From Candidatus Oxydemutatoraceae bacterium (GTDB lineage Bacteria; Pseudomonadota; Gammaproteobacteria; Poriferisulfidales; Oxydemutatoraceae), in NCBI GenBank assembly GCA_965220085.1, contig CBDCOZ010000003.1, forward strand, positions 1,963,667-2,027,666: a DNA stretch of 64,000 nt, written 5' to 3'. Below, one piece after another: positions 3,656 to 60,453 of this stretch (position 1 is its first letter; the number at the start of each line of letters is the position of its first letter). Both the position numbers and the translations under genes were made by a program. Under the pieces are notes generated by a model. The model did not search any database. It was not told the DNA's origin and saw nothing but the letters and a program-made list of their open reading frames with translations.

Positions 3656-5356
3656 TTATCGTAGCGGGCCTTCCAGGAAAAGGCGCAGGCGCAAGCGCAG
3701 ACCCGGGTCCGCGCCTTCCACTGCTATGCCAAAGGGCAGGCTGGCCGTATCGTCGCTTTCGGTGTTGTTGTCGGCATCCGCCACTGTCCAGATATAGGTA
3801 GCGGAAGTCGCCGCCGCTCTGGGGATGCCGCTGATGGTGCGGGTGGCGGGCTCAAGGCTTAGGCCCGCCGGCAGAGCCGGGGTCAGGGCATAGGTCAGCT
3901 CACCATTGCCGCCGCTGGCCGCAGGCAGGGTCAGGTCGGTGATGGCGGCGCCGGTCACCCAGCTCTGGTCGGCGATGGCGGCATCGGCGGCAAAGGCCGG
4001 CGCCGTATCCGTACTTACCTCTATGCCGAAGGTCAGCGTATCGGTATCGTTGATCATGGTATTGCTGTCGCCATCGGAGACCCGGTAGGCATAGGTGACA
4101 CTTGTAGCGGAGGCAGGTGTGCCGCTGATAGTACGCGTGTCGGCATCAAAGGCGAGACCCGCGGGCAACGCCGGAATCAGGGCATAGGTCAGCGCGCCAT
4201 CGCCGCCGCTGGCCGCAGGCAACACCACATCGGTGATGGCGGCGCCGATGATCCAAACCTGATCATCCGCCGAGGCATCGCCAAAGGCGGGCACACTGTT
4301 CACCAGCCTGCCGACGCTGCATCGCTCCTCGGAGGCCGGAGGGGAGAACTGATCCATAAAGGAAACGCAGACGCGTATGTGCTTGCCGGTCTGGGCCGCA
4401 AGCGGTGTGAAGTCGGAGAAAGTGATGCCTGTGGCAGTGGCGCCGGGTATATCGCTGTAATCACTGGTTAAAGGGGCGCGACCTCTGTCGGGGGAAGCGC
4501 CCTGTTGCCACTTCCAGGCCAGGGTAGCGACATCGATGCCGTTGGGTTCTGTCACACCGGTTATCGATGCCGTAAGCGGCACACCTACGTAATAGGCGGT
4601 GGCGGCGCCCGTAGCAGTCGCTACCGTGGGCACACCGCTGGCGGCCGTCTGCGTGGATGCCCCTGCCAGGTTGATGGTCATCGTGGCCTCAGTAGCAACT
4701 GGCGATGTTCCAAATGTTTCGATGCTGAAGCGGAAACTGGTAGCGGTGACAGAGATGTCATCGGTTGGCGGGGTGTATCGGAGTTTGTTTTCGGAGTTGG
4801 CAGGTGAAAAATGAGGCATGTGGAATGAGCGACCCCTCTGGTTATCACGACCGAGCTGGCCGATGAAGAGATTGAAGGTGCCATCGTCCTCATAGAAAAG
4901 GGTGCCAAGATCAGGCAAACTTTCGATGTACAGGGTGCCGCCTGTGAAACCGGGGAAGTCGGCCAACCGGAAAGTATAAGTGTCCCCGCCAAGTTCGACA
5001 TCAACACTGCTGTCTTGGGCGGTTTGCGCGTTCGCCCCGGTTGCGCCCAATGCCAGGCACAGCGCGGCCGCGCCGATGCGCCGCAAAATTGCGTAACCCG
5101 CGTCTGCGTCAAGGGGCAGGCAATGTATGGCAACCGCGACGATGCGACGCGCCGCCGCCCGCGCGGGTGCGAAGAGCGCCGCAAACCATAGCGCAAGCCG
5201 AGGCGCCGCCGGAAGACGCATCCGCGTTGCGGATGGCGAGTTGCGGTGTGCGGGTGGCAGAAAGCGAGCGGCGAGGCGATATAGCCGGGAGTCCGCAATC
5301 CCCCTATTTACACAGCGCACGGGGGAGGGGGGGGGGGGGGGGGGTAGTATTAACAT
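3656..5356 (-). CDS. Secreted Ig/cadherin-like repeat protein, paralog 'A' of the 57.4–64 kb array. Ends in RLRLRLFLEGPLR. The 5' end is uncertain or degenerate.
   Basis: The C-terminal ~150 aa and the 3' flank are near-identical to 57417..58292 and 61894..62735. Domain-like TMTINL segments are present. A poly-C tract follows the candidate starts. Confidence 0.65.
   Translation of the reverse strand: MLILPPPPPPSPVRCVNRGIADSRLYRLAARFLPPAHRNSPSATRMRLPAAPRLALWFAALFAPARAAARRIVAVAIHCLPLDADAGYAILRRIGAAALCLALGATGANAQTAQDSSVDVELGGDTYTFRLADFPGFTGGTLYIESLPDLGTLFYEDDGTFNLFIGQLGRDNQRGRSFHMPHFSPANSENKLRYTPPTDDISVTATSFRFSIETFGTSPVATEATMTINLAGASTQTAASGVPTVATATGAATAYYVGVPLTASITGVTEPNGIDVATLAWKWQQGASPDRGRAPLTSDYSDIPGATATGITFSDFTPLAAQTGKHIRVCVSFMDQFSPPASEERCSVGRLVNSVPAFGDASADDQVWIIGAAITDVVLPAASGGDGALTYALIPALPAGLAFDADTRTISGTPASATSVTYAYRVSDGDSNTMINDTDTLTFGIEVSTDTAPAFAADAAIADQSWVTGAAITDLTLPAASGGNGELTYALTPALPAGLSLEPATRTISGIPRAAATSATYIWTVADADNNTESDDTASLPFGIAVEGADPGLRLRLRLFLEGPLR
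5327..5344. repeat. Homopolymeric G18 tract (C18 on the coding strand), preceded by GGGGGA
   Basis: Counted directly. It lies just 3' of two alternative ATGs (5369 and 5356) that are in different frames. Confidence 0.95.
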
Positions 5357-5599: not shown

Positions 5600-5740
5600 A
5601 CCACAGAGTACGGGTCATTTGCAAGCGCCTCCTGCCCTGCTCCCCTTGTCTGCGCCCCATATGCTCCCCTGCTCCGCCGCAGGATACTCGCGCTATCGCA
5701 ACGGGCCTTCCAGAAAAAGGCGCGGGCACAGGGCGGCGGG
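5600..5740. other. Orphan degenerate copy of the family 3'-boundary element (…TACTCGCGCTATCGCAACGGGCCTTCCAGAAAAAGGCGCGG…) with no attached gene
   Basis: Aligns to the conserved 3' tail/boundary at 3579–3700 and to the 58.6, 60.4, 61.9 and 62.9 kb junctions. Confidence 0.5.
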
Positions 5741-30694: not shown

Positions 30695-31440
30695 ACCGCC
30701 TTATGCGAACCGCCGACCTGTTAATCCATGCGCACCGAGTCCTGCCGATTAATCCGGCAAACACGGTGTTGAATGCCCACAGCGTGGCGGTAAGCGCCGG
30801 CAGGATTGCCGCCGTGATGCCGAGCGCTGATGCGCGTCGCAACTGGCTGGCGGCGTTGCACAAACTGAAGCGAACCGCCTTATGCGAACCGCCGACCTGT
30901 TAATCCATGCGCACCGAGCCCTGCCGATCCGCCCGGCAAACACGGTGTTGAATGCCCACAGCGTAGCGGTGCGCGATGGCCGGATTGCCGCCGTGATGCC
31001 GAGCGCCGATGCGCGTCGCAACTGGCTGGCGGCGTTGCGCAAACTGAAGCGAACCGCCTTATGCGAACCGCCGACCTGTTAATCCATGCGCACCGAGTCC
31101 TGCCGATCCGCCCGGCAAACACGGTGTTGAATGCCCACAGCGTAGCGGTGCGCGATGGCCGGATTGCTGCTGTGATGCCGAGCGCTGACGCGCGCCGCAA
31201 CTGGCTGGCGGCGTTGCGCAAACTGAAGCGAACCGCCTTATGCAAACCGCCGACCTGTTAATCCATGCGCACCGAGTCCTGCCGATCCGCCCGGCAAACA
31301 CGGTGTTGAATGCCCACAGCGTAGCGGTGCGCGATGGCCGGATTGCCGCTGTGATGCCGCCCGCTGACGCGCGCCGCAACTGGCGGCGTTGCACAAACTG
31401 AAGCGAACCGCCTTATGCGAACCGCCGACCTGTTAATCCA
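30666..31440 (+). repeat. 179-bp tandem array of about 5 copies: the batD 3' end plus the first ~150 nt of mtaD
   Basis: ATGCGAACCGCCGACCTG recurs at 30703, 30882, 31061, 31240 and 31415. The last spacing is 175. Confidence 0.95.
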
Positions 31441-32730: not shown

Positions 32731-33292
32731 CTACGCGCAATCTTCTTCGCGGAACCATGCATTGACGACGATTGACATCGACGCGCTCGGCCCGCGAGCG
32801 CTTGAAGGGGAGCGGAAAATCAGCGGCGGATGACTATCTGCAGTCTTCGTCTTCGCGGAACCATGCATTGACGACAATTGACATCGACGCGCTCGGCCCG
32901 CGAGCGCTTGAAGGGGAGCGGAAAATCAGCGGCGGATGACTACGCGCAGTCTTCTTCGCGGAACCATGCATTGACGACGATTGACATCGACGCGCTCGGC
33001 CCGCGAGCGCGCGCTCAAACTGGATGACCGTATCGGTTCGGTTGAAGTCGGCAAAAGCGCGGACTTGATAGCCACAGACCTGAGCGGAGCGGAAGCGAGA
33101 CCGCTGTACGATATCGCATCGCATCTGGTCTACGCGACCGACAGGCGGCAAGTCAGCGATGTCTGGGTGGCCGGGCGGCGGCTGTTGCGGAACCGCACAT
33201 TGACGACGATTGACATGGACGCGCTCGGCCCGCGAGCGCTTGAAGGGGAGCGGAAAATCAGCGGCGGATGACTACCTGCAGTCTTCGTCTTC
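32437..33292. repeat. Nested duplications of the mtaD 3' end and the convergent PLD-gene 3' end (~92-bp units and a ~280-bp segment repeated)
   Basis: TTGACGACGATTGACATCGACGCGCTCGGCCCGCGAGCGCTTGAAGGGGAGCGGAAAATCAGCGGCGGATGACTAC occurs 4 times. 32440–32730 is about the same as 33010–33290. Confidence 0.85.
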
Positions 33293-34684
33293 GCGATCCT
33301 TTTTCTTGTCAAAATCGTTATCTATGCCGTCGCTACAAGAGTCGCGCGAGAACTCTGATTCCGGCGGCGGATTGCCGTGGAGCCATTCGCCGGGAATCGA
33401 TTCCCACAACTCGTTAAAAAAGGCGGTCAGGCAGGCGGCCTTTGCCGACGCATCCAAAAGAATAATGGTATTCTCATCGTTATACCTCTCCCCCGCGTTA
33501 GTCCAATTCATGGAACCGATGATGATGTGTTTGTTGTCGATGATCGCGGTCTTCGCGTGCATCTTCCCGCCCCACGACTCAACCTTGAGTTTGACATCGT
33601 GATTGCGCAGGTATTCGTGCTTGCTGTAAGAGTTCTTTGCGGCCGTCGCATCCAGTATCACCCGCACTCGCACGCCTCTTTCTTGCGCAAAACGCAGCTC
33701 CTTCGCAACTTCTTTGTGGGTCAGGTAGAAAATCATCACGTCGATGGATTCCTTCGCCCCGTGAATCAGCCCGAGCACACGGCTCATCGCAGGAGACTGC
33801 GGTGAGAAATACAACTGCAAATTCTGCGCGCCGACCTTGGCCGTCAAGTGTTGCGTTTTATAGCGCGCCTTGTTGCGATGATATCTGCCGCCAAACATCT
33901 GATTAAACTCGCCGGCATAGAAATCCGCGACTTCTTCCGAGTCAATCACGATGACGGTGTTCGCGTTGTAACCCCCGATTCCAGTATCGCTCACGTTCGC
34001 CGAGCCCGTCCATACCCAGCGCCCGTCGATGACAAAGAACTTGTTGTGCATCAAATTGCCTCTGAAGTTTATCTTCTTTTTGCTCGCATAACCCCTGCCG
34101 CCGAAACACTGCGTCGGGCCCAGGCTGTCGTCATCGGGCACCTTGCAATAAGGCTTGCTCCTGAGGTCTTTGTCTCTTTTCTCCCGCGCGCGTTGTTTGT
34201 ATTCGTATTTCTTGCGCGCTTCTATGTCCGCCGCGCGGTCATCCCGCACATCCCCCAAGATGTTCTGCAAATAGTCGGTATCGGAATAGTAACTGCCGCC
34301 GTCGGCGTCCCTGTCCACGACGCCTCTGACCCGCACGCCGCGCTTTTCCGCATCGATCAAGGCTTGTACGATCTCTTTCTGCCCGCGTACGCCATACAGC
34401 GCGAAGTCAATGGTGGTTTGCGCATCATCGATCAGCTTTTTCAAAGCCTCGCACATCTCCGTCGTGCAACGGGGGTTCGGGCCTGTCGCCTCCAGCGGCG
34501 ATTGCGTGATGACAGATACGCGCGATTCGGGATGCGAGCACGTTGCCGATGCGGTTTGCGCAACGGCATAGCAGAGCGTTGCCAGCGCGCATATTGTTGC
34601 CACTGCAATGAGAGCCGGTTTCGCACCGGTCAATACACCGGTTAATGTCGTTTTATTCCGCATCGTCAAATAATAAAATAGCAC
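33272..34684 (-). CDS. Secreted phospholipase D-family protein (two HKD motifs)
   Basis: HNKFFVIDGRWVWTGSANVSD and HAKTAIIDNKHIIIGSMNWT. N-terminal signal peptide. Acidic, Cys-containing C-terminal tail. Confidence 0.75.
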   Translation of the reverse strand: MLFYYLTMRNKTTLTGVLTGAKPALIAVATICALATLCYAVAQTASATCSHPESRVSVITQSPLEATGPNPRCTTEMCEALKKLIDDAQTTIDFALYGVRGQKEIVQALIDAEKRGVRVRGVVDRDADGGSYYSDTDYLQNILGDVRDDRAADIEARKKYEYKQRAREKRDKDLRSKPYCKVPDDDSLGPTQCFGGRGYASKKKINFRGNLMHNKFFVIDGRWVWTGSANVSDTGIGGYNANTVIVIDSEEVADFYAGEFNQMFGGRYHRNKARYKTQHLTAKVGAQNLQLYFSPQSPAMSRVLGLIHGAKESIDVMIFYLTHKEVAKELRFAQERGVRVRVILDATAAKNSYSKHEYLRNHDVKLKVESWGGKMHAKTAIIDNKHIIIGSMNWTNAGERYNDENTIILLDASAKAACLTAFFNELWESIPGEWLHGNPPPESEFSRDSCSDGIDNDFDKKKDREDEDCR

Positions 34685-36091: not shown

Positions 36092-37006
36092 TTACTTTGC
36101 CGCTTGATAGGCCTGCTCTATCAAGGTCAAAATATAGGGCAAATCTTCTTGCTTGGCACAAAATACTTGCACATATCCGCCTTGTTGTCCCCCGCTTATG
36201 GAAATCTCCTTTGAAATCTGTTTCGGGTCATGTAATTTTTCCGGTGGAATCCTTAGCACGATTCTTATTTTTTTCTTCCGCAGCTCTATGAATGCAAAGG
36301 TAACTTGTGTTATGTACGAGACATAGTTTTTCCGTACCCTTTCTTCTATGCCATCGTCAAAATCAAGAATCTTTTCTTGTAATGCAAAAAACAGATTTTT
36401 TACCGGCTCATCCGCGGTACTCAAATGGTCATCGAGCGTATAAACCTTTATTTCTTTGCTGACACTCTCAATGGTCGCCTTGTTTTTAGAAGTGGTTTTG
36501 ATCGATTCCTTTGCATCGGATGAAAGCAACTGGTTGTATAAAATTGTGGAATTGTCGTAAGCCCTGACTTCCCACAACTCAATCGCTAAATCCCGGAAGT
36601 TGATGGCATTTTTCTGATAGGTAGTAAACCTTTGCGCCAGAAACAAAACTTTTGACTGCGACCAATCCACATCTTTACGCCCCAACTTCTCCTTGGTCTT
36701 CTCGTTGTATTCCAGAATGAAATCGGCCTTGTTGTTAAGCATTGCGGCGAGGTAGGAAAACCCTTGGTCGATGACACTGGAACTTCTATTCCGCTTGTAC
36801 TCGATGATGACAAAAGAACGGGTCTCTTCATCAAACGCGAGCGTATCGATGCGAAAGCTTTGCACGGGGAATTCCGTGCTGATAAACCGCAAGCCAAAAA
36901 CGGTTTCCAAATTACCCTCGGTTAATCTTTGGATGTCTCTTTCAAGGTCAATACGCTTTTCCTTTATCAGGGACAGCTTCTGTTTTTGTATATTAAAAAT
37001 TGCCAT
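36092..37006 (-). CDS. PD-(D/E)xK nuclease-fold protein of unknown function (NucS/DUF-like core IDTLAFDEETRSFVIIEYKR)
   Basis: D…E.K motif in the typical NucS-like context. Low-GC gene inside the R-M island. Confidence 0.5.
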   Translation of the reverse strand: MAIFNIQKQKLSLIKEKRIDLERDIQRLTEGNLETVFGLRFISTEFPVQSFRIDTLAFDEETRSFVIIEYKRNRSSSVIDQGFSYLAAMLNNKADFILEYNEKTKEKLGRKDVDWSQSKVLFLAQRFTTYQKNAINFRDLAIELWEVRAYDNSTILYNQLLSSDAKESIKTTSKNKATIESVSKEIKVYTLDDHLSTADEPVKNLFFALQEKILDFDDGIEERVRKNYVSYITQVTFAFIELRKKKIRIVLRIPPEKLHDPKQISKEISISGGQQGGYVQVFCAKQEDLPYILTLIEQAYQAAK

Positions 37007-37166
37007 AATTATTTCGCAGTGTGTCAGCCACTATAGAACAAAGACCCAAAGGCTTCCTTGCCGTTGCCTGTGTTGACCCAAGACACCATGTGCATAGCAA
37101 GTTGCGCCTCGTACCTCTCAATTACACTTTCGGTCATGTTCTCTTAAATAAAGCTTTCAATTCTTA

Positions 37167-37934
37167 TTATCTTATTCGTTTCCTAGCGATTTTTACATAC
37201 TCTTTGTCTTGCTCAATTCCAATCCATTCGCGATTGTACTTTTTTGCTACAAAGGCCGTGGTGCCACTTCCCAAAAACGGATCAAGAACTATGTCCCCTT
37301 TTCGGGAACTTGCCAAAATAATACGCTTCAGCATTTCTTCCGGTTTTTGTGTTGGGTGTAATGCACGCCCATTACCACCATGTAAGCGCTCCTTACCCTG
37401 CACAAGCGACAACTCCCAAAGATCACGCATTTGCTTAGGACTCCCATCCTTTTTCTTATCAGGATTTATTTCTTTTATTTTTTCGTAATCAAAAGTCCAA
37501 CCACTTCCTTTTACTGCCCAAACAACAAATTCTGTTGAGTGTGTGAACACTCGTCTTGTCATGTTTGGCATCGCATTTGTTTTATACCAAGTAATGAGGT
37601 TATTCACTTTGAAATCAAGCTGTTTCAAAACAATCATTACTTCTGCAACATTGTGGTAGCTACACGCAACATAAATTGAACCTTTTTCTTTCAGAACCTT
37701 ATCACACGCACCAAGCCACTTTCTTGTAAACTGCAAATATTCTGGCGCTGTCATCTTATCCCACTGCTCATTGACCATGTACCAATCACCACCAGTCTCA
37801 TTTCCTTTCCATTTCAGTCCATTTCCAGACAAGTTGTAAGGTGGGTCTGCAAAAATTAGGTCAATGGAATTCTCATCAACTCTCTTGTTGAGCACATCAA
37901 TACAATTCCCGCTGTAAATAATATTTGTTTTCAT
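37167..37934 (-). CDS. DNA methyltransferase, beta-class (N6-adenine or N4-cytosine)
   Basis: N-terminal DPPY (IFADPPYNL), C-terminal FxGxG-like LDPFLGSGTT. Confidence 0.8.
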   Translation of the reverse strand: MKTNIIYSGNCIDVLNKRVDENSIDLIFADPPYNLSGNGLKWKGNETGGDWYMVNEQWDKMTAPEYLQFTRKWLGACDKVLKEKGSIYVACSYHNVAEVMIVLKQLDFKVNNLITWYKTNAMPNMTRRVFTHSTEFVVWAVKGSGWTFDYEKIKEINPDKKKDGSPKQMRDLWELSLVQGKERLHGGNGRALHPTQKPEEMLKRIILASSRKGDIVLDPFLGSGTTAFVAKKYNREWIGIEQDKEYVKIARKRIR

Positions 37935-37937
37935 ATT

Positions 37938-39761
37938 TTATGTTTGAGGGACAAGACTTGCTTGCCATGCAGAAATCGCACTTGGAATATTTTGTAACCA
38001 CCCATTTGAGTCATTAGATGACCTTGATAAGTCTATGATTTCATCATATAAACGTGAAATTTCTGTATGCCGCAAGAATCTTTTCTGTGATTTCATTTGC
38101 ACTAAAACTTTCAAAATAGAAATAAATTGGTCTATTGAGAGAGGAATAATTTTTTGCGATTGCCCCTCATATTCATACCTTATTGCCATCCAAAAAGTGT
38201 TTATTGTGTCTCTATGTAACTTTGGAGCAATGAACAAGCAATAAGAAGGCTTGTCACCGTATTTTTGTTCAAAGTCACGCAAGTGGCGCATTACTGGCTG
38301 CCCTTCGTTATACCACTGAGTGCGACTACTCAACATCGTGACTTCACAAATTGCATTAAAACTCTCATAGAAACATTCTATATCTGGTGTGTTTGCTGGC
38401 GCGGTAAATGTTGGCTCATTATCATCGCCAACAGGATAATTAGGCTGAATTTTCAATGCATCGTTTAGGGCATATAATCCAAGTGCCGATAGTTTCTCAA
38501 GTAAAATTGGCCTGTCTTTAAAACTAAAAATATTACCCAAATCTTTGATATAAGATTCAATTCGCTTAACCTCCTGAGATTTCTTGTGGCTTTCTTCATC
38601 CTGCAACTCTCGGCGATATTCTCTTAACTCTGAAATATAGTTTTTTAGTTCGGCATTTTGCAGCAATTGGAAATTTTTAATCACAAGGCTTTCTTTTTGC
38701 AAAGCAGATTCATACCCCTGTATTTCCTCAATCAATTTCTCAATAATCTCGACATGTTTTTCTATTGTCTCCCAAGGTAGTTTTGGCTCCGAAATATCAG
38801 AAATATAGGCGAGGCGCTCTTCCTCAGAAGCAAAAGCTTTTGATTGTGCATTATCAAAATCAAGCAAAGAATTGATTTCAACTAATCTCCTCGGTTCTAA
38901 GTCAATGTAAAATCCGCCGCCTCGGATATAAATATATCTTGTACGACGAAAATAACGAATCACATTATCGCCATAATCTTGCAAATTCTTCAACAATTTT
39001 CTTATCTCATTTTTGTTGTCAGTCTCTAAAAACTCACCAGCGAATTGCTTTTCATGGGAATCAAAAACTACGCTTCGTTCCTGTTCTGTTTTGCCTGATA
39101 ACTCATCTCGTAGCGCAATAACCTTTTCTGCGTAAGAGTCAATATCTTGATAATGCACTAAGGTTGGCACAAAAAGAGAAAACTCTTTTTTGCTAATGCC
39201 CTTTGCACTGTTCCCGCGAGCAACTTCTTTTTGATTCACTGCGTTAATCAAATGTAATGTTCCGATAAATGGCTTTATATTGTCATCTACATCAGCTAGA
39301 TTACCTTGGTTACCCTTCCCTGGAACCTGCCATTTCAAGAAACTCCTAAAAAGGAACTCTCCAAAATCCAAGTCGCCTTTCAAAAACAGCCTGCCCCATT
39401 CTGTTATTTTCACCCTCTTATCCTCAATGGCGACCAACCCAATTTTTTTGAGAGGGTTCATTGATTGCCTTCCGCGCATCGCAGGATCCTCATAGCCTTT
39501 TATATTGAAGATTTCTTCTGCTTGTTCAAAAGAGATATCTTTTGACGAATCTTCCATCAGAGCAATCTTGTCTTCGGGAAGATCCTTATAAAATTGTCTT
39601 TGCCCGTAGCCATATGCTCGATTTTGAATCAATAAGATTTGATATCTCTTTTGGCTCTCAGAATTCCATTCGGAATCTTCTAGTTGTTTCAAAACAATCA
39701 AGAACCTTCTCAACCTCTCTGGATTTCGTAGCGTTGTTGTAATTGACCAAGGCTTTTTCAT
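37938..39761 (-). CDS. Type IIS restriction endonuclease, AlwI family (tentative family assignment)
   Basis: N-terminal WSITTTLRNPERL resembles the RE_AlwI family signature as recalled from memory. Size is ~600 aa. Flanked by two MTases. Confidence 0.55.
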   Translation of the reverse strand: MKKPWSITTTLRNPERLRRFLIVLKQLEDSEWNSESQKRYQILLIQNRAYGYGQRQFYKDLPEDKIALMEDSSKDISFEQAEEIFNIKGYEDPAMRGRQSMNPLKKIGLVAIEDKRVKITEWGRLFLKGDLDFGEFLFRSFLKWQVPGKGNQGNLADVDDNIKPFIGTLHLINAVNQKEVARGNSAKGISKKEFSLFVPTLVHYQDIDSYAEKVIALRDELSGKTEQERSVVFDSHEKQFAGEFLETDNKNEIRKLLKNLQDYGDNVIRYFRRTRYIYIRGGGFYIDLEPRRLVEINSLLDFDNAQSKAFASEEERLAYISDISEPKLPWETIEKHVEIIEKLIEEIQGYESALQKESLVIKNFQLLQNAELKNYISELREYRRELQDEESHKKSQEVKRIESYIKDLGNIFSFKDRPILLEKLSALGLYALNDALKIQPNYPVGDDNEPTFTAPANTPDIECFYESFNAICEVTMLSSRTQWYNEGQPVMRHLRDFEQKYGDKPSYCLFIAPKLHRDTINTFWMAIRYEYEGQSQKIIPLSIDQFISILKVLVQMKSQKRFLRHTEISRLYDEIIDLSRSSNDSNGWLQNIPSAISAWQASLVPQT

Positions 39762-39763
39762 AA

Positions 39764-41665
39764 TTATTTTGTTACTTCACAGTAGAAAATACGTTCCGCA
39801 TTATTCCTTCCGTTACTTTTTCCTGTTGTGAAGGCTTTGTAATCTTTTTCAAAAATTTCGACATCGCCCTTATCATTCAGGATTTGCAAAATGTCGTTAT
39901 CATGTATCCGTGCATTTGAACGTCCGTCTTTTGAATCTCCAGTGTTGTTATATGATAGTAAAATGTGTTTGCAATCGGCATCTCTTATCAAACCTGCAAG
40001 TGCACTCGTTGCGCTCTTGAGGCAATAATCGCTCTTGATGTGTGAACGAGCCATCTTTTTACTAATTCCAACAACTTGCGGCCTTTCCCATTCTGCAAGA
40101 TTTTCTAAAAGATGATATGCATCCGAGTATTGGCGCGAATTGTATGGCGGGTCAATATATAAAACATCACAGGAGATTTTTCGTATAAGTGTATTTGCAT
40201 CTTCTTTATAAATCTCATTATTTATGTTGCGTGAATAATCAATATCGGGAACAAGTAACTTTATTGGTTGGAGCATATCTAGCCTTTTACGAAAAGCGTC
40301 ATAATGCCCAACAGTATTTGCCACTTTATCAACTGCGTAAATAAGAGAACAAATCAAGAGATTTCTCTCATCTTTGCCTTCTATGCTTCTGTCAATCTCT
40401 TCTCTAATCACACCTATTTTCCTTGCATTTTCTTCTGTGAAGTATGTTCCGCCAAAGTGTTTTGAAAAATAATTTTCCTTGTCGCTTGGCAAATTGTTGA
40501 GATATTTTATTTTTTCAGAAATACTTTTTTGAGGCTCTTTGCTTACTCCCAAGAATGCTTGTAGGCAAGTATAGTTTGCAAAAAGAAAATCATTGGAAAT
40601 AATCTTTATGCTTGGGTTATTGAACCTTGCCCCGACAACACCGGTTCCCGCAAAGATATCGCAAAACGAGCCTACTAATCCGCACTTCTCGGAGATTATA
40701 TCTTCAACAAACCCGAGTAATTTATATTTATTACCTAAATAACGTCTGTTTTGAAGTTGAAAATATCCGTTTTTTGAACCCCGCGGTTGGAAATAATGCT
40801 TATAGTTTTTTTGAACACTAGCCCCATAAGCAGGCCTTTCAATTTCTAACAAATCAAAAAGTGTTCCTTGCGCTCCGTCCGCAACATAATCAAAACTTTC
40901 GTTTTGGTCTTTTAGTTTTTCGTAAAAACTAAAATCTCCTTTTGATGAAACGATAATAAAATCAATAACAGGTATTCCCATTATATTTCCCGCTTGCACG
41001 ATTTTCTCTACAACCTCAATATCCTTTTTACTGGGCAACGAATCGCCAGATGGATGATTGTGTACCAAAATTACACTCGCGGCATTGAGTTCTATCGCAG
41101 AATAAAAAATTTCTCTTGGATGAAGTAATGTCTTGTCAGCAAGTCCAATACTTACAACTTCTTTTCTCAACAAGACATTTCGTGCATTTAGATACAAACA
41201 AACAAGATATTCCTTTTTCTTACTTCGCAAATCATAGGTTAGTGAAGCAATATCTTGAGAGTTTTTTATCACAACCTCGTTTGTTTGATTGTCTGCATAA
41301 AACCTTTTAACGAGAGAAATTGCTGACGCAATTTGTAAGGCTTTGGCTTCGCCAATTCCTGCAACGCTTTTCAAGTCATCTACTGTAATATTCAAAAAGT
41401 TTTTACTAAATCTCTTGATAATTTGTCGTGAGAGCTGCTGAACATTTTTCCCTTTGATTCCACTTCCAAGCAGGATTGACAAAAGATCGCTTTTTGAAAG
41501 TGCCTCTGGACCTTTCTTGAGAAATTTTTCCCTTGGTCTATCAACTTTTGGAATATCTTTAATCTTTGCCATGTTTATTTCACTAATGCACTCAAGGGAT
41601 TTTTTCATTTTGCTTGCACGACTGAGAGAACACACCCAAAGCGTAATGGAGTTGTTGTCGTTCAC
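39764..41665 (-). CDS. Fusion protein: N-terminal RadC-like (HhH + JAB/MPN HNHPSGD) domain and C-terminal Dam-like (D12 class) N6-adenine DNA methyltransferase
   Basis: DRPREKFL…LSILLGSG…VAGIGEAKA…VILVHNHPSGDSLPSKKDIEVV is RadC. NRRYLGNKYKLL…FCDIFAGTGVVG…LYIDPPYN is Dam-like. The start is probably at MAKIKD (~41569). Confidence 0.8.
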   Translation of the reverse strand: MNDNNSITLWVCSLSRASKMKKSLECISEINMAKIKDIPKVDRPREKFLKKGPEALSKSDLLSILLGSGIKGKNVQQLSRQIIKRFSKNFLNITVDDLKSVAGIGEAKALQIASAISLVKRFYADNQTNEVVIKNSQDIASLTYDLRSKKKEYLVCLYLNARNVLLRKEVVSIGLADKTLLHPREIFYSAIELNAASVILVHNHPSGDSLPSKKDIEVVEKIVQAGNIMGIPVIDFIIVSSKGDFSFYEKLKDQNESFDYVADGAQGTLFDLLEIERPAYGASVQKNYKHYFQPRGSKNGYFQLQNRRYLGNKYKLLGFVEDIISEKCGLVGSFCDIFAGTGVVGARFNNPSIKIISNDFLFANYTCLQAFLGVSKEPQKSISEKIKYLNNLPSDKENYFSKHFGGTYFTEENARKIGVIREEIDRSIEGKDERNLLICSLIYAVDKVANTVGHYDAFRKRLDMLQPIKLLVPDIDYSRNINNEIYKEDANTLIRKISCDVLYIDPPYNSRQYSDAYHLLENLAEWERPQVVGISKKMARSHIKSDYCLKSATSALAGLIRDADCKHILLSYNNTGDSKDGRSNARIHDNDILQILNDKGDVEIFEKDYKAFTTGKSNGRNNAERIFYCEVTK

Positions 41666-54646: not shown

Positions 54647-55675
54647 TCAAAGTGCAACTATCAAAGCCGCTAATGCAAGTACGGCTGCTACAAGCCACTT
54701 TACCATGTCTGCGCGATGTTCAGCCAACTCAGCTCTCAACTCTTCTTTGGTCACCAGATTGTCTAAGTCTTCTTTGGTCGCCATATTGGCCAACTCAGCT
54801 CTCAACTCTTCTTTGGTCACCAGATTGTTTAAGTCTTCTTTGGTTGCCAGATTGTTTAAGTCTTCTTTGGTTGCCAGATTGTTTAAGTCTTCTTTGGTCG
54901 CTGAATTAGCCACCTTTTCTTCCAACCGCTTTAAGTCTTCTTTGGTCGCTGAATTGGTTACCGCTTCTCTCAACTGATCCAATGCTTCTTTCACCGCTGA
55001 CTCAGACTTGTTAAACTCCGCTTTCAACTTGGCCAATGCTTCTTTCGTCGCTGACTCAAACTTGTGAAACTCTTCTTTGGTCACTGTATTGGCTAACCCG
55101 GCTCTCAACTGATTCAATGCTTCTTTCGTCGCTGACTCAGACTTGTCAAACTCTTTTTGGGTCACCGAATTGGCTGCCGCTTCTCTCAACTGATTCAATG
55201 CTTCTTTCATCGCTGACTCAGACTTGTCAAACTCTTTTTGGGTCACCGAATTGGCTGCCGCTTCTCTCAACTGATTCAATGCCTCTTCGATCGCCGACTT
55301 GAACTCGGCAAACTCCGCTCTCAACTGATTCAATGCTCCTTCAATCGCTGACTTGAATTCGGCAAACTCTTCTTTCGTCACGGAATTGGCAAACTCTTCT
55401 TTCAACTTGGCCAATGCCTCTTTCATCGCTAACTCAAACTGGGTTAACTCTTCTTGGGTCGCTAACTTGGCCAATGCTTTTTTCATCGCTAACTCAAACT
55501 CGGCAAATTCGCCTTTCGTCATCAAAGCGCTCAAGTGTTTGCGCAACACTGCCAATTGCTCGTTGGCAATCGCGTGTGCTTTTTGTTCGTCAAAGCCTGC
55601 GCCAGTCAAGTTATCGACGGGCTCATAAGCAACCCCCGCCGTATCTTTTACTTTTAAGTTTTTAGGTTTTTTCAT
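54647..55675 (-). CDS. Coiled-coil, C-terminally TM-anchored protein (DUF1640-like, tentative), paralog 2
   Basis: GGGAGG RBS, start MKKPKNLKV. EF(A/K)EFKSA(I/L)EEAL and ATKEDLNNL repeats. C-terminal MVKWLVAAVLALAALIVAL. Confidence 0.7.
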   Translation of the reverse strand: MKKPKNLKVKDTAGVAYEPVDNLTGAGFDEQKAHAIANEQLAVLRKHLSALMTKGEFAEFELAMKKALAKLATQEELTQFELAMKEALAKLKEEFANSVTKEEFAEFKSAIEGALNQLRAEFAEFKSAIEEALNQLREAAANSVTQKEFDKSESAMKEALNQLREAAANSVTQKEFDKSESATKEALNQLRAGLANTVTKEEFHKFESATKEALAKLKAEFNKSESAVKEALDQLREAVTNSATKEDLKRLEEKVANSATKEDLNNLATKEDLNNLATKEDLNNLVTKEELRAELANMATKEDLDNLVTKEELRAELAEHRADMVKWLVAAVLALAALIVAL

Positions 55676-56000
55676 AATTATTGCGCCTCCCGGTCGCATC
55701 ATAACACTAATTAAAATCTATGATCAATAGCCTCGTGCCGGATAGTAACACTACTTTAGGAGCTGCAGTCAAGCGAATAGGACAGGCGGTTATAGATCAT
55801 CAGACGAACGGTCTAAAAGAAGCATTTGCGCGAGCGCCGTCATGACGCTTCCCTCGCCGAGAGAGTCGCAGAGTCCGCTATGACTCCCAACTTTTTTTGA
55901 AAGTCGCAGAGTCCGAACCACAAGCGCCGGACGATGCAGCGAGGGAGTGTTGTCGGTGAAGCACACTCCCCTGCCGGCGCGAACAAGATACGGCGCAGTC

Positions 56001-57077
56001 CTAAGCGAAGAGTGTAATCAATGTGGCTATCGCTGTAACAATCACAGCCGCTAATGCAAGTGCGGTTGCTACAAACCACTTTATCATTTCTGCGCGATGT
56101 TCAGCCAACTCAGCTCTCAACTCTTCTTTGGTCACCAGATTGTCTAAGTCTTCTTTGGTCGCCATATTGGCTACCTTTTCTTCCAACCGCTTTAAGTCTT
56201 CTTTGGTCGCCAGATTGTTTAAGTCTTCTTTGGTCGCTGAATTGGTTACCGCTTCTCTCAACTGATCCAATGCTTCTTTCACCGCTGACTCAGACTTGTT
56301 AAACTCCGCTTTCAACTTGGCCAATGCTTCTTTCGTCGCTGACTCAAACTTGTGAAACTCTTCTTTGGTCACTGTATTGGCTAACCCGGCTCTCAACTGA
56401 TTCAATGCTTCTTTCGTCGCTGACTCAGACTTGTCAAACTCTTTTTGGGTCACCGAATTGGCTGCCGCTTCTCTCAACTGATTCAATGCCTCTTCGATCG
56501 CCGACTTGAACTCGGCAAACTCCGCTCTCAACTGATTCAATGCTCCTTCAATCGCTGACTTGAACTCGGCAAACTCTTCTTTAGTGACCGAATTAGCAAA
56601 CTCCGCTTTCAACTGATTCAACGCTTCTTCGATCGCCGACTTGAACTCGGCAAACTCTTCTTTCGTCACCGAATTGGCTGCCGCTTCTTTCAACTTGGCC
56701 AATTCTTCTTCGGTCGCCGATTCAAACTTGGAAAATGCTTCTTCGAGCGCCGACTTGAATTCGGCAAACTCTTCTTTCGTCACGGAATTGGCAAACTCTT
56801 CTTTCAACTTGGCCAATGCCTCTTTCATCGCTAACTCAAACTGGGTTAACTCTTCTTGGGTCGCTAACTTGGCCAATGCTTTTTTCATCGCTAACTCAAA
56901 CTCGGCAAATTCGCCTTTCGTCATCAAAGCGCTCAAGTGTTTGTGCAACACTGCCAATTGCTCGTTGGCAATCGCGTGTGCTTTTTGTTCGTCAAAGCCT
57001 GCGGCGGTCAAGTTCTCGACGGGGTCATAAGCAACCGCCGCCGCATCTTCTACTTTTAGGGTTTTGGATTTTTTCAT
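56001..57077 (-). CDS. Coiled-coil, C-terminally TM-anchored protein (DUF1640-like, tentative), paralog 3
   Basis: Same leader, MKKSKTLKV, the same repeats and a C-terminal TM helix. About 300 nt of upstream DNA is shared with paralog 2. Confidence 0.7.
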   Translation of the reverse strand: MKKSKTLKVEDAAAVAYDPVENLTAAGFDEQKAHAIANEQLAVLHKHLSALMTKGEFAEFELAMKKALAKLATQEELTQFELAMKEALAKLKEEFANSVTKEEFAEFKSALEEAFSKFESATEEELAKLKEAAANSVTKEEFAEFKSAIEEALNQLKAEFANSVTKEEFAEFKSAIEGALNQLRAEFAEFKSAIEEALNQLREAAANSVTQKEFDKSESATKEALNQLRAGLANTVTKEEFHKFESATKEALAKLKAEFNKSESAVKEALDQLREAVTNSATKEDLNNLATKEDLKRLEEKVANMATKEDLDNLVTKEELRAELAEHRAEMIKWFVATALALAAVIVTAIATLITLFA

Positions 57078-57416
57078 AATCATTGCGCCTCCCGGTCGCA
57101 TAATAACACTAATTAAAATCTATGATCAATAGCCTCGTGCCGGATAGTAACACTACTTTAGGAGCTACAGTCAAGTGAATAGGACAGGCGGTGTAGATTA
57201 TCAGACGAACGGTCTAAAAGAAGCATTTGCGCGAGCGCCGTCATGGCGCTTCCCTCGCCGAGAGAGTCGCAGAGTCCGCTATGACTCCCAACTTTTTTTG
57301 AGAGTCGCAGAGTCCGAGTCACAAGCGCCGGATGATGCGGCGAGGAGAAAGTTCCATGCTCGCACTAACCACACTCCTCCCTCTTCGCTACGGTGAAGCA
57401 ATGGCGGTAGCCCCCG

Positions 57417-58292
57417 CTACCGCAACGGGCCTTCCAGGAAAAGGCGCAAGCGCAGGCGCACCTCAGGCACCAGATTGGCCTCTGTCACCCGATGACCCGC
57501 GCTACACAGCGACCCTTCCAGCCCTTCCTGTGCGGGCGTGTCATGCTGATCCATGAAAGAAACGCAGGCGCGCACATACCTGCCCACTTGGGCGGCACGC
57601 GGTGCGAAGAAGTCGGAAGAAGCGGCGTCCGCTATGTCGCTATAGGCGCTGTCCGCGGGGGTGTCGGCGCCGCCGGGCGGTGCGTCGGCCTGTTGCCACT
57701 GCCAACTCAGGGTGTCGACATCAATGCCGTTGCGATCCGTCACACCGGCGATGGAAGCTGTGATTCCGGCCGCGGCGGTGATTGTGGGCGCGCCGGCGGC
57801 GGCCGTCTGCGTGGATGCGCTCACCAGATTGATGGTCATGGTGACGATGTCAGATACTTGCTTATCAGGGCCGGAAGTAAGGACACCCACACCGACAGTC
57901 AGACGGTAGGTGAAACTGTCATAACTATTGGTGACAGAGATGGCAGCGGTGGACGGAGTGTATACAATATGGCCCTGATCCAGTTGAATTACAGATGATA
58001 TATTATTAGGGCGAGCAGGAAAAGCGGAGACTACCCTATTTTTTAAAGTGCCGTGTTCGGTGTCGGATTCAATGTGAAGCCCCCCTAGCAAGTCGCCATC
58101 CGCATCCTCGAAAGGAAAATCAGCGACTCTGAACGTGTAACTGCTGCCAATAACGACAGCAACGCTGGCATCCCGAACCATGATGGGAGCCGCATAAGCG
58201 CACGTTACGCCCAATGCCCAGAAGGACAGCGCAAGGCATGTGGCGGTTATCCGGCGATTGCGAGGGGTAGTATCAAAAATTTGTCGTTTCAT
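57417..58292 (-). CDS. Secreted Ig/cadherin-like protein, family member B (subfamily 1). Ends in RLRLRLFLEGPLR.
   Basis: AGGAGAAATACT-ATG, signal peptide MKRQIFDTTPRNRRITATCLALSFWALGVTCAYA, and the conserved C-terminal ~150 aa. Confidence 0.75.
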   Translation of the reverse strand: MKRQIFDTTPRNRRITATCLALSFWALGVTCAYAAPIMVRDASVAVVIGSSYTFRVADFPFEDADGDLLGGLHIESDTEHGTLKNRVVSAFPARPNNISSVIQLDQGHIVYTPSTAAISVTNSYDSFTYRLTVGVGVLTSGPDKQVSDIVTMTINLVSASTQTAAAGAPTITAAAGITASIAGVTDRNGIDVDTLSWQWQQADAPPGGADTPADSAYSDIADAASSDFFAPRAAQVGRYVRACVSFMDQHDTPAQEGLEGSLCSAGHRVTEANLVPEVRLRLRLFLEGPLR

Positions 58293-58382
58293 AGTATTTC
58301 TCCTAATGGTTTGTATTTCGTAAATGCGGTTGCGCAATGAGCGCTTCCGCCCCAAAGACATCCGCAAGCAATTCAAGAAGCC

Positions 58383-58461
58383 ACAAACAACGAATCGAAG
58401 ATACACAAACAACGAATCGAAGATACACAAACAACGAATCGAAGATACACAAACAACGAAG
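58383..58461. repeat. 22-nt tandem repeat of about 3.6 copies (ACAAACAACGAATCGAAGATAC)
   Basis: Seen directly. Lies within a ~210-bp insertion into the otherwise conserved B/C boundary. Confidence 0.95.
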
Positions 58462-58468
58462 TTGTTTG

Positions 58469-58533
58469 TGCTCTCATCACTGTGCTCTCATCACTGTGCT
58501 CTCATCACTGTGCTCTCATCACTGTGCCTCATC
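58469..58533. repeat. 14-nt tandem repeat of about 4.6 copies (TGCTCTCATCACTG)
   Basis: Seen directly. Adjacent to the 22-mer array, upstream of gene B's leader. Confidence 0.95.
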
Positions 58534-58647
58534 AAGCGTTGTTTGTGCACATAACTCACAAAGCGCAAGTCATCCACAAGTATCCTGATATCCTGTCTCA
58601 TCCTCGCGCGCCTCATAACACTCTCCTTCTCATCGCAGTTACTCGCA

Positions 58648-60312
58648 TTACCGCAGCGGGCCTTCCAGGAAAAGGCGCAAGCGCAAGCGCAACTCGCGCA
58701 CCAGATTGGCCTCTGTCACCAGAACGCCCGCGCTGCACAGCGGCCCTTCCTGTTCCGGCATGGCAAGTTCATCCATGAAAGAAACGCAGGCGCGCACATA
58801 CTTGCCCACTTGTTCGGCCTGCGGTGCGAAGAAGTCGGAAGAAGGCGCGTCCGCTATGTCGCCGTAGTTGCCCATGGGGGTGTCGGCCTGTTGCCACTGC
58901 CATTGCAAGGTGCCGACATCGATGCCGTTGACATCCGTCACCCCGTCGATGGAAGCCCTGATTCCGGCCGCAGCGGTGATGGTGGGCGTGCCGGTGGCCG
59001 CCGTCGGGATCGTCGCAACGTCAACACAGTTCGGATATTCGCCGATATGCGAGACCAAATTGCAGGCGCATTCCGTCGCGCCGTTCGGATTCGCCGCCGC
59101 CGGTGTCGCGCCCTCCCCGCAGTTGAAAACATACGGCTGCCGAACCGGGATCATGGCAAACGCCGCGGTAATCAATCCGGGCAACGCCGCAAAACGCGCC
59201 GCCTGAGTTACCCCGCTTGCGTCAAAATCAAAAGGAATCGCGTTGTCTGTGAAGAACACTTTCTCCAGCACCGAAACGACAATGGTTATATTATTAGCGT
59301 CGGAGTTGGCCTCTATGTTAGCAAGCGGGCCGGCAAGGTAGTCCGAGGCCGAGTCGCCTTCGTATCGCGCCAAAACCGCATCCCGATAAACGCCCGCCGC
59401 GGTTTTGATATGCGCGGGATTTGCGGCATCGGCGGCAATGGCGTTAAAGCCGTTAAAAAGACTTTGCACCAGCGGCGGAGGCGCTGCGTCGGGAAAGGCG
59501 TATTCCGCGCCGAACACATCGGCGCACCGCGGCGCACTCTCGCCAAAAAAGCAACCGTCATAATCCGTCCCGCCCGAAGTCAGCGGGATTTCGCATTGGG
59601 GGGCGGCGGTGGCGGTGGAAATATCCCACCCTTCGCGTATGCATGCGCGAGCCCCCTCCCGTTGGCCGCGGGTCAAAGTCGGCATGGCAACACAGTTCGG
59701 CCATACGCCGATGTACGGGTCCGAACCGCAGGAGCACTCGGTTTCGCCGTTCAGGTTATGGTCCGGCGGATAACCGCCGGGGACGTTTCCGTTTTGGTCG
59801 CAGTTTGCAATAAAAACATCGGTGCCGGCGACCTGGGGGCGGACGGTGGGATGGTCTTCCGCCTTCGGAAAAACCGGCGGGTCGCCATACATGAGTGCGC
59901 AGGAAACATTGGCGACTGTGCTTCCCCGAGCAATGTAGCAACTATCAGCGGCGGCACGGTCTAATCCTGATGTTCCCGTCCACAATACGGAGGGAATCAT
60001 ACAAGCCAGATGTCCCGAACCATACAACGCCACCGCTTCGCGTCCGTCCCATCCCGCTTCTTCGCAGTCGTCCAGAATTGAGATCAAGGCGTTGTCAAAG
60101 CATCCGGTGTTTCTCTCCTCAGCGACGTGGGGGGAAGTGACTCGGGTTTGCCCTTCGGAGCAGATAGTTTGGCAAATGCCGCGAACATTTTCCTGTCCTG
60201 CCGGACACATCGTTTGCGCTTGCGCGCTGTTTGCGACGAGCGCGAAAGTGATTGCCGCGCAAATCCCGCAAATTTTAAGGAGGGCGGCAGTATTAATAAG
60301 TTGTCGTTTCAT
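58648..60312 (-). CDS. Secreted Cys-rich / Ig-like protein, family member C. Ends in RLRLRLFLEGPLR.
   Basis: The same leader, MKRQLINT and a signal peptide. A unique Cys-rich body. The conserved C-terminal module (TPTITAAAGIRASIDGVTDVNGIDVGTLQWQWQQAD…). Confidence 0.75.
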   Translation of the reverse strand: MKRQLINTAALLKICGICAAITFALVANSAQAQTMCPAGQENVRGICQTICSEGQTRVTSPHVAEERNTGCFDNALISILDDCEEAGWDGREAVALYGSGHLACMIPSVLWTGTSGLDRAAADSCYIARGSTVANVSCALMYGDPPVFPKAEDHPTVRPQVAGTDVFIANCDQNGNVPGGYPPDHNLNGETECSCGSDPYIGVWPNCVAMPTLTRGQREGARACIREGWDISTATAAPQCEIPLTSGGTDYDGCFFGESAPRCADVFGAEYAFPDAAPPPLVQSLFNGFNAIAADAANPAHIKTAAGVYRDAVLARYEGDSASDYLAGPLANIEANSDANNITIVVSVLEKVFFTDNAIPFDFDASGVTQAARFAALPGLITAAFAMIPVRQPYVFNCGEGATPAAANPNGATECACNLVSHIGEYPNCVDVATIPTAATGTPTITAAAGIRASIDGVTDVNGIDVGTLQWQWQQADTPMGNYGDIADAPSSDFFAPQAEQVGKYVRACVSFMDELAMPEQEGPLCSAGVLVTEANLVRELRLRLRLFLEGPLR

Positions 60313-60453
60313 AGTATTTCTCCCGATGGTTTGTGATTCGCGAACGCGGTTGCGCAATGAGCGCTTCCGCCCCAAAGACATCCGCAAGTATCTCCGTATC
60401 CTGTCTCATCCTCGCGCGCCTCATAACACTCTCCTTTTCCGTAGTTACTCGCA
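60313..60453 (-). promoter_or_regulatory. Conserved ~140-bp cassette boundary (3' tail downstream region plus 5' leader with RBS), D/C junction
   Basis: Near-identical to 61750–61893 and 62736–62875. Confidence 0.6.

Follow-up and report, generated by a model that had tools for sequence, protein, structure and literature searches.

Background

The DNA considered here is a stretch of 64,000 nucleotides (nt), called the window throughout, from a contig of a Candidatus Oxydemutatoraceae bacterium whose genome we refer to as the source genome. The window carries on its minus strand a family of genes for adhesin-like proteins which differ in their bodies and share a short C-terminal peptide, the tail, placed directly before the stop codon. 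The family Ca. Oxydemutatoraceae takes its name from a genus of sponge symbionts; Oxydemutator thiolithooxidans, a gammaproteobacterium, lives in symbiosis with the sponge Stylissa (PMC11685487), and the gammaproteobacterium from which the window comes may likewise be host-associated. The LeuC protein of the source genome has no match above 90% identity in the collection compared, and those of its relatives that have names are uncultured Gammaproteobacteria and Chromatiales, which marks the source as an undescribed gammaproteobacterium; its sample is that of run ERR14375724.

An earlier inspection of the window, made from its letters alone and called the sequence-only reading below, had offered two explanations for the tail: a new C-terminal sorting or secretion tag recognised by a dedicated export or processing system, or the accidental translation of a conserved nucleic-acid element such as a recombination site or an attenuator. 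In the present work we report that the tail is translated and under selection as a C-terminal peptide, that it stands where a closely related gene encodes an autotransporter barrel, and that a candidate acceptor protein exists into which it may dock.

Results

The tail and the genes that carry it

A six-frame scan of the window found the tail at the ends of six open reading frames (ORFs), all of them on the minus strand, with stops at 3656, 57417, 58648, 60454, 61894 and 62876. The minus-strand ORF 57417-58430, for instance, terminates ...VTEANLVPEVRLRLRLFLEGPLR, then TAG. The copies and the features that bear on them are listed here, with protein lengths in amino acids (aa).

57417..64000, running beyond 64000, minus strand: head-to-tail array of five family genes, each with a conserved leader, a variable passenger-repeat body and the tail; the intergenic units are conserved
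57417..57458, minus strand: tail RLRLRLFLEGPLR and TAG; gene 57417-58292, 291 aa (P0002), the copy singled out by the sequence-only reading
58648..58689, minus strand: tail RLRLRLFLEGPLR and TAA; gene 58648-60312, 554 aa (P0024), with a Cys-rich N-terminal part and one immunoglobulin-like repeat
60454..60495, minus strand: tail FLRLRLFLEGPLR and TAA; gene 60454-61749, 431 aa (P0017)
61894..61935, minus strand: tail RLRLRLFLEGPLR and TAA; gene 61894-62619, 241 aa (P0001)
62876..62917, minus strand: tail NLRLRLFLEGPLR and TAA; gene with an open frame from 62876 beyond the window end at 64000
3656..3697, minus strand: tail RLRLRLFLEGPLR and TAA; ORF 3656-5356 with two He_PIG domains, between trxB and ftsK and distant from the array
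5693..5722, minus strand: relic copy RLFLEGPLR and TAG, with a homologous 3' flank kept and the gene body absent, outside any long ORF
5327..5344, minus strand: poly-C run of 18 nt (poly-G on the plus strand) within the 5' end of ORF 3656-5356, encoding MLILPPPPPPS

Four of the six copies read RLRLRLFLEGPLR and two deviate from it (FLRLRLFLEGPLR and NLRLRLFLEGPLR), so that the invariant core is the 12-residue LRLRLFLEGPLR. The sequence-only reading was right that all six ORFs share this ending and that a stop codon follows it directly, but it overstated the identity: all 13 residues are strictly the same in only four of the six, and the '(V/L)xEx' prefix that it assigned to every member is not general. 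The observation itself is real and statistically overwhelming, since a regular expression for an eight-residue motif gave 84 C-terminal matches in 392,001 residues of proteins and ORFs, against 0.003 expected, and shuffled windows gave 0 matches to the DNA motif.

The leader of the array genes consists of AGGAGA, 6 nt and the ATG of MKRQIF..., and the tail genes look expressed because of this AGGAGA and ATG and because a hydrophobic N-terminal segment is present in 36 of the 72 tail proteins that we examined in this and other genomes. In the gene ending at 61894 the MKRQIF leader (MKRQIFDTAPRNRRITAG...) and a signal peptide are encoded at about 62620-62800 on the minus strand, out of frame with the body, which begins MAEDSSVDV... 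at 62619; as its leader sits in another frame upstream, this copy is either frameshifted (a pseudogene or in the 'off' phase) or mis-assembled. Read-through or frameshifting past the tail stop was considered and rejected, because the array copies have further in-frame stops (R-stop-CE-stop) and the conserved leader of the next gene occupies the open frame that comes after them. The relic copy, which reads PRLFLEGPLR-stop and is located between trxB and ftsK like the sixth gene, is probably the remnant of a lost upstream paralogue.

The poly-C run is the sole homopolymer of at least 9 nt in the window, and PPPPP(P) occurs in the leaders of P0018, P0023, P0034, P0061 and P0070. The run and these leaders together suggest phase variation via slipped-strand mispairing, and we regard the run as a possible phase-variation tract.

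The tail is conserved as a peptide

The six intact window copies spell each of the 12 core codons, as well as the stop, in two or more synonymous ways, and pairwise comparison of the core codons counts 83 synonymous differences and 0 non-synonymous ones; the statement in the sequence-only reading that the codons are identical even at synonymous positions is thus incorrect. The same peptide is spelled differently again in other lineages. A tail gene of a Chromatiales metagenome-assembled genome (GCA_014323925.1, L005) uses CGT GTC CGA ATT AAG GTC TTC CTA GAG GGA CCG CTA CGC TAA, and in loci of 42-48% GC, on six or more other contigs of gammaproteobacteria, the ending FLEGPL[RQ] is encoded by other codons and followed by AT-rich 3' flanks unrelated to those of the window. 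Folding the boundary element as RNA, as had been proposed, revealed no conserved structure: for the tail with 60 nt, RNAalifold gave -11.9 kcal/mol with a covariation term of +1.07. No terminator-like site adjoins the tail stops of the window copies, and Rfam has nothing at the tails, its only matches in the whole window being four tRNAs. Because the variation is purely synonymous, because the peptide recurs across lineages with other codons and flanks, and because neither RNA structure nor a terminator nor Rfam lends support to another view, we conclude that the tail is conserved at the protein level and is a translated, selected C-terminal peptide, not a DNA or RNA element.

The opposite view, that an attenuator, a terminator, a recombination site or a site like the initiation of mutagenic homing (IMH) sequence of a diversity-generating retroelement (DGR) happens to be translated, can draw on two observations. 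About 45-80 nt on the 3' side of the stop are alike among the source-genome copies, including the distant ones at 3656 and 5693, and the tail codons CUUUUCCU are able to pair with a downstream GGAGAAGGAGAG. The flanking likeness is what co-duplication of flanks among paralogues would give, however, and is absent from the other lineages, which keep the peptide and have unrelated flanks; the consensus fold has no covariation behind it; and the coding-independent nucleotide identity at the 3' end that would mark a DGR target or other DNA-level element is not found, all of the variation within the tail being synonymous. The read-through of a recombination site or attenuator, the second of the two explanations offered earlier, is effectively refuted, and we give nucleic-acid readings hardly any credence.

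Two further observations concern the flanks. Some 20-45 nt 3' of each array stop (for example at 58605-58630) there is a strong Shine-Dalgarno-like GGAGAAGGAGAG, followed by an ATG that opens a small ORF (MRRARMRQD...). In the RNAalifold consensus this downstream GGAGAAGGAGAG is complementary to the tail codons CUUUUCCU, without support from covariation.

Distribution of the tail

A profile of the last 32 residues was searched exhaustively against 1.84 billion representative proteins with a cut-off of E<=1e-3; a word-index protein search with the same profile returned 4 short proteins only and missed known members. The exhaustive search yielded 64 matches, 61 of which run to the last or the last but one residue of proteins of 35-6018 aa. 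When one family member was used at full length as the query, nine proteins were found, all of which bear the tail and lie on the source contig (2,046,636 bp). Twenty-three tail proteins were verified on that contig and ten of ten sampled profile matches fell on it; of the 72 tail proteins it seems to encode about 58. By a rough estimate from these ~58 proteins, the adhesin repertoire occupies ~4% of the 2-Mb replicon.

Absence from all other genomes, which was named beforehand as a finding that would tell against a tag, is not what is seen. The tail also ends proteins on seven other contigs (L005, L006, L007, L009, L010, L011 and L012), which include the Chromatiales genome already mentioned, two ENA contigs of 2.96 Mb (L006) and 2.37 Mb (L009), and GCA_053469805.1 (L007), which is labelled Ca. 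Oxydemutatoraceae. The tails from these assemblies end ...GIRVRIKVFLEGPLR, ...GLRVRVKVFLEGPLR, ...IRLRIKVFLEGPLQ, ...IFIRTRVFLEGPLRE and ...LRLRLRVFLEGPLQ. Taken together, the tail follows the pattern h-[RK]-h-[RK]-h-[RK]-h-F-L-E-G-P-L-[RQ]-COOH, approximately 13 residues, and can be read as an amphipathic beta-strand with an EGP turn after it. All of the 72 tails close with R, Q or E, apart from an 81-aa call on a contig of 697 nt, which closes with L.

A strict DNA pattern for RLRLFLEGPLR, too strict to admit the K, V and I variants, gave only chance out-of-frame matches in 185,579 species genomes and the JGI metagenomes (L001 inside a porin gene, L002-L004 in AT-rich DNA). No Pfam or NCBIfam model covers the tail (for NCBIfam there is none at E<=1), and a search of a literature library for the motifs of the tail and of the acceptor described below found no paper.

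Elsewhere in the source genome, P0010-P0012 are short ORFs that amount to scarcely more than a tail, and P0036 is a chimeric gene call which joins a SLOG/LOG-like N-terminus to a passenger fragment and a tail. These four are relics of tail cassettes scattered in the genome.

The tail stands in place of an autotransporter barrel

The Pfam domains found ahead of the tail are He_PIG, Big_9, Cadherin_3/4/5, Cadherin-like (PF12733), PPC and fn3. In the 36 proteins with a clear N-terminal hydrophobic segment this is followed by sites of the AQAQAQ or ANAQ type, and many of the remaining tail proteins are 5'-truncated gene calls or fragments. Giant members of 3334-6415 aa (for example P0042, P0063 and P0075) also begin with Sec-type leaders, which argues against type I secretion, whose RTX-type adhesins lack an N-terminal signal peptide, keep an uncleaved C-terminal signal and usually contain RTX repeats; no tail protein has an RTX match in Pfam. 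From these leaders we infer that the tail proteins are exported by the Sec pathway.

One pair of proteins shows what the tail replaces. P0023 (642 aa) of the source genome and P0196 (1269 aa; ENA contig L023, 10001-13810, GC 63%) fall in the same 90% cluster and are 93.5% identical over residues 19-624, with identity stopping exactly at the start of the tail. Past this junction P0023 continues DNLNLRLRLRLFLEGPLR-stop, while P0196 continues with passenger repeats and a PF03797 barrel ending ...RLQARLRW. The 93% identity up to the junction argues that the exchange of barrel and tail was recent, and the pair implies a recent replacement of one 3' module, the barrel, by another, the tail, via recombination.

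In BLASTP the six window proteins align with P0196 and with a neighbouring autotransporter of 1542 aa on L023 (E 1e-16 to 1e-67), in both cases with the passenger alone. As the matches are confined to the passengers, the family consists of autotransporter-type passengers that bear the tail in place of the barrel. In the terms used for type Va autotransporters, the passenger is present, as adhesin repeats behind a Sec signal peptide, and the 12-stranded C-terminal barrel with its aromatic last residue is missing: PF03797 was found neither in the six window proteins nor in 49 other tail proteins, and these chains end in R or Q.

One body type deserves separate mention. The product of 58648-60312 (minus strand) has a distinctive Cys-rich region of ~440 N-terminal residues (...ANCDQNGNVPGGYPPDHNLNGETECSCG...) without a Pfam match, and shares it with P0066 and P0071, both of which end in the tail.

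A secreted protein that lacks a tail-like strand

In two of the other tail-bearing genomes (L006 and L009) a secreted protein, 271 or 296 aa long, is the product of a gene that ends 22-29 nt upstream of a giant cadherin gene with the tail. The two proteins are 53% identical to each other, share the conserved blocks TDPYCS, VSDWVLIELRAV, GKDLYVVVRHINHLDVIS and YDFT, and contain VSDWVLIELR and VVVRHINHLDVIS. They also carry a dockerin module (Dockerin_1 in Pfam, E 6.5e-6; dockerins of the PDB, E 0.005-0.05). We refer to this protein as the candidate acceptor.

Domains with the motifs DWVLVELR and HRNHL presumably begin with a strand of the form '...KVFLEGPY'. IMG/VR was scanned for homologues with DWVLVELR only, the tail motif being left out of the query, and five stretches were returned. 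Two of them (L014 and L016) encode proteins homologous to the L006 protein (BLASTP E 1e-12, 30% identity, residues 63-271 against 69-238). The proteins begin VEVNVKIFLEGPF or VEVNIKFFLQGPF, and the mature part of both starts with YVEVNVKIFLEGPFD or YVEVNIKFFLQGPFD, an N-terminal segment that aligns with the whole tail as h-x-h-x-h-[KR]-h-F-L-[EQ]-G-P-h. The tail is thus matched by a strand of an unsplit domain, in two related examples only, and the segment concerned is exactly what the L006 and L009 proteins are without. The chance expectation of the eight-residue core in two 45-residue segments is 7.5e-7. Across all frames of L006 and L009, the tail of the adhesin itself is the single FLEGP-type motif.

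Further searches for acceptor homologues gave dockerin-only matches in the PDB, none in plasmids and phages, and the L014 and L016 loci only in IMG/VR; a scan for KVFLEGPY returned only chance matches.

An unsplit protein of the same kind (FLEGPF...DWVLVELR...HRNHL..., then a dockerin-like part) is encoded at L018 3001-3729 in a podophage-like module, beside homologues of the Gp80 fibre and the Gp77 adaptor; this fibre and adaptor neighbourhood is a hint that the domain family has a cell-surface-binding role.

Discussion

A split domain as the possible reader of the tail

Many otherwise different adhesin-like proteins with Sec-type leaders end in the tail, and that the tail is selected, modular and strictly C-terminal on all of these supports its interpretation as a peptide tag. 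To this extent the first explanation of the sequence-only reading stands, but the reader that it envisaged, a peptidase or transporter, is not borne out by the data, and no such gene lies in the window; the sole candidate reader is the secreted protein composed of a domain without the tail-like strand and a dockerin-like module.

The mechanism that we propose is as follows. Judging by their leaders, the adhesin-like tail proteins and the acceptor would both be exported by the Sec pathway. The tail caps the passenger-repeat adhesins at the place where a near-identical gene has further repeats and an outer-membrane beta-barrel, and would correspond to the first strand of a secreted beta-rich domain (...QPY..., VVDWVLVELR, YxVVIYHRNHL, YDFT) that is followed by a dockerin-like calcium-binding module. 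Tail-bearing lineages would encode this acceptor domain minus its first strand, directly upstream of a tail-bearing adhesin gene, and the most economical way to connect the two would be insertion of the tail in trans at the missing first strand, that is, donor-strand or split-domain complementation. A variant is that the acceptor recognises and processes the tail, for which its HxNH motif might serve. The dockerin-like module could, speculatively, attach the complex to something on the envelope, so that a single dockerin-bearing adaptor would hold many different adhesins; more than 50 cargo proteins of the source genome would then share one acceptor or a few.

We place the probability that the strand-less acceptor reads the tail, by docking in trans or otherwise, at about 0.5, with roughly 0.7 of that figure going to strand complementation. 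The fuller picture, which we put forward tentatively and at somewhat less than even odds, is that of a natural 'tag and catcher': a split beta-rich domain with a 13-residue strand on the cargo and the rest, together with a dockerin-like module, as the secreted acceptor, the tag having taken the place of the autotransporter barrel repeatedly in this gammaproteobacterium, and more than 50 adhesin paralogues, possibly phase-variable, sharing one anchoring socket.

Several points weigh against a docking role. The similarity between tail and unsplit strand is short, and the hidden Markov model (HMM) of the tail scores only 6.6 bits on the unsplit protein (E 1.4 in a set of 3,157 sequences). The comparison is carried by just two unsplit examples, which share 73% identity and are encoded in a neighbourhood of phage tail-fibre genes. 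Only in L006 and L009, two syntenic genomes, do acceptor and adhesin genes lie side by side, and no acceptor is present upstream of the tail gene in L010 (first 140 nt) or L007 (first 560 nt), where the DNA is non-coding, or within the 64 kb of the window, which comes from the genome with most tails. An AlphaFold2 model of P0003 with 10 paralogues is poor, with a mean predicted local distance difference test (pLDDT) score of 59.5 and an unstructured tail at ~51-53. Lastly, docking leaves without explanation the passage across the outer membrane of barrel-less passengers, some of them of 3,000-6,000 aa.

Other readings of the tail

The tail could instead be a sorting or processing signal for a dedicated machine of another kind encoded elsewhere in the genome (a C-terminal peptidase, for example, or a transpeptidase or outer-membrane translocon), its likeness to the strand of the unsplit domain being coincidence or a shared recognition site. 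Its distribution is that of a classic sorting tag, with many paralogues of unrelated bodies ending in a short, terminal, protein-conserved peptide, and it takes the place of an export or anchor module, the autotransporter barrel; the strand similarity is weak by HMM score, and the HxNH motif of the candidate partner would also suit an enzyme that acts on the tail. Yet no candidate peptidase or transporter lies beside the tail genes in the window or in L005-L012, no sorting signal of NCBIfam or Pfam matches, and the tail has neither the transmembrane helix nor the folded domain on which known tag systems rely, so that we hold a machine of this kind to be unlikely. Less probable again, at long odds, is that the tail acts like a beta-signal or as a barrel-completing strand which engages BamA/BamD or the barrel of another protein, in the manner of a split autotransporter. 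R-L-R-L-R-L-F-L does have the polar-hydrophobic alternation of barrel strands, is similar to the strand that closes the related autotransporter barrels (...LRLQARLRW) and sits at the former barrel position; against this, the invariant FLEGPL[RQ] is not found in those barrels, the alternating part varies in other lineages (IRVRVKV, IFIRTRV), and the chain ends in R, Q or E in place of the defining aromatic residue.

We think it slightly more improbable still that the genes are decaying or silent autotransporter fragments, either pseudogenes or donor cassettes for recombination and antigenic variation, with the shared 3' end as the recombination joint. The body-less relic tails (5693-5722 and P0010-P0012) and the chimeric P0036 would fit such a history, as would the frameshifted leader of the gene ending at 61894, the ~80-nt 3' flank that is co-duplicated within the source genome, the poly-C tract and the resemblance of P0023 to a truncated P0196. 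Neutral or DNA-level conservation cannot, however, give 83 synonymous differences and 0 non-synonymous ones, nor does it account for the same peptide with other codons and flanks in other lineages, and the genes have ribosome-binding sites, ATG starts, signal peptides and reading frames that remain uninterrupted over as many as 6,018 codons.

Short linear motifs of the PEXEL/RxLR-like, CendR-like and PDZ-ligand kinds were also considered and set aside: the residue positions that we take them to require do not fit the tail, whose last residue varies between R, Q and E.

Other features of the window

There is no partner gene for the tail among the window genes, which comprise only housekeeping genes (trxB, ftsK, lolA, smpB, plsX, fabH, uvrC, leuCDB, asd, fimV, truA, lysC, bamC, dapA and bcp), a Bat/MoxR operon and a restriction-modification cluster. 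The cluster, at 36092-41665 on the minus strand, encodes a DUF5655 protein, an N6_N4 DNA methylase, an AlwI-type endonuclease and a fusion of RadC (JAB domain) with a Dam-type (D12) methyltransferase.

Three paralogous coiled-coil proteins built of 27/81-nt repeats (KEEFAEFKSAIEEALNQLK...) are encoded at 34-804 (plus strand), 54647-55702 (minus strand) and 56001-57101 (minus strand), and two of these genes directly adjoin the tail-gene array. The two complete paralogues end in a hydrophobic C-terminal segment, and Pfam gives weak CCDC90-like and Baculo_PEP_C matches. The window also has unusually many tandem repeats of long period, at 772-1503, 8051-9288, 9666-10562, 25083-25922, 30666-31677 and 32457-33342, with units of 61 nt (nine copies), 134 nt (eight), 199 nt (four), 140 nt (five) and 179 nt (five) and others of ~100-540 nt. 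By their coordinates they are mostly intergenic (between ftsK and lolA, for example), though mechanically called ORFs overlap them.

Comparison with known systems

In its distribution the tail recalls the sorting signals of the LPXTG/sortase, PEP-CTERM/exosortase, GlyGly-CTERM/rhombosortase and type IX secretion system C-terminal domain (T9SS CTD) systems, which are likewise short, lineage-restricted C-terminal homologies on many unrelated secreted proteins of one genome. In construction it differs from them, as the sequence-only reading had correctly noted. The first three combine a signature motif with a transmembrane helix and a basic cluster, and the tail has neither a motif of this kind nor such a helix or cluster: over the final 45 residues of the 72 tail proteins the 15-residue Kyte-Doolittle mean reaches 1.78 at most, neither NCBIfam nor Pfam has a matching model, and there is no sortase, exosortase or rhombosortase gene in the window. 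The T9SS CTD is a folded beta-sandwich of ~70-100 residues, found in Bacteroidota together with Por genes, whereas the conserved region of the tail spans 12-16 residues, too few for such a domain, and its host is gammaproteobacterial. Were it to be a docking or sorting tag, the tail would represent a class of C-terminal signal in Proteobacteria that makes use of neither a transmembrane helix nor a folded domain.

With the type Va autotransporter adhesins, represented here by P0196 and the 1542-aa L023 protein, the tail proteins share homologous passengers and the same kind of Sec leader, but in place of the alpha-helical linker and PF03797 barrel they have the 13-residue tail. The beta-signal that outer-membrane proteins present to the beta-barrel assembly machinery (BAM) is also a terminal amphipathic strand with alternating hydrophobic residues; it ends in an aromatic residue, however, and the tail in ...EGPL[RQ] with an invariant FLEGPL. 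A docking or sorting tag would also show that autotransporter passengers can be displayed without a barrel of their own; the 'tag and catcher', if real, would be a way of surface display not described before for Gram-negative bacteria, and the tail would offer a handle on how relatives of sponge symbionts manage very large, fast-changing adhesin repertoires.

The Dockerin_1 module of the candidate acceptor invites comparison with the cohesin-dockerin pairs of the cellulosome, in which many cargos are attached to a scaffold through a small module. Here the dockerin would be on the adaptor and the tail on the cargo, and no cohesin was identified.

The closest parallels to the proposed mechanism are donor-strand complementation, as in chaperone-usher and type V pili, and the engineered SpyTag/SpyCatcher pair, in all of which a terminal peptide supplies the strand that is missing from a domain of another polypeptide. 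The tail has in common with them that it is a short terminal peptide of alternating hydrophobic residues, at ~13 residues about as long as SpyTag, and that one type of acceptor can serve many tagged proteins. The acceptor proposed here is, on the other hand, an uncharacterised DWVLVELR/HRNHL domain with a dockerin-like module and not a pilin or CnaB2, and there is neither a chaperone or usher nor evidence of an isopeptide bond. If the split-strand mechanism holds, the tail and its acceptor would constitute a natural pair of 13-residue peptide and partner domain, by analogy with SpyTag/SpyCatcher of interest to the study of secretion and to protein engineering.

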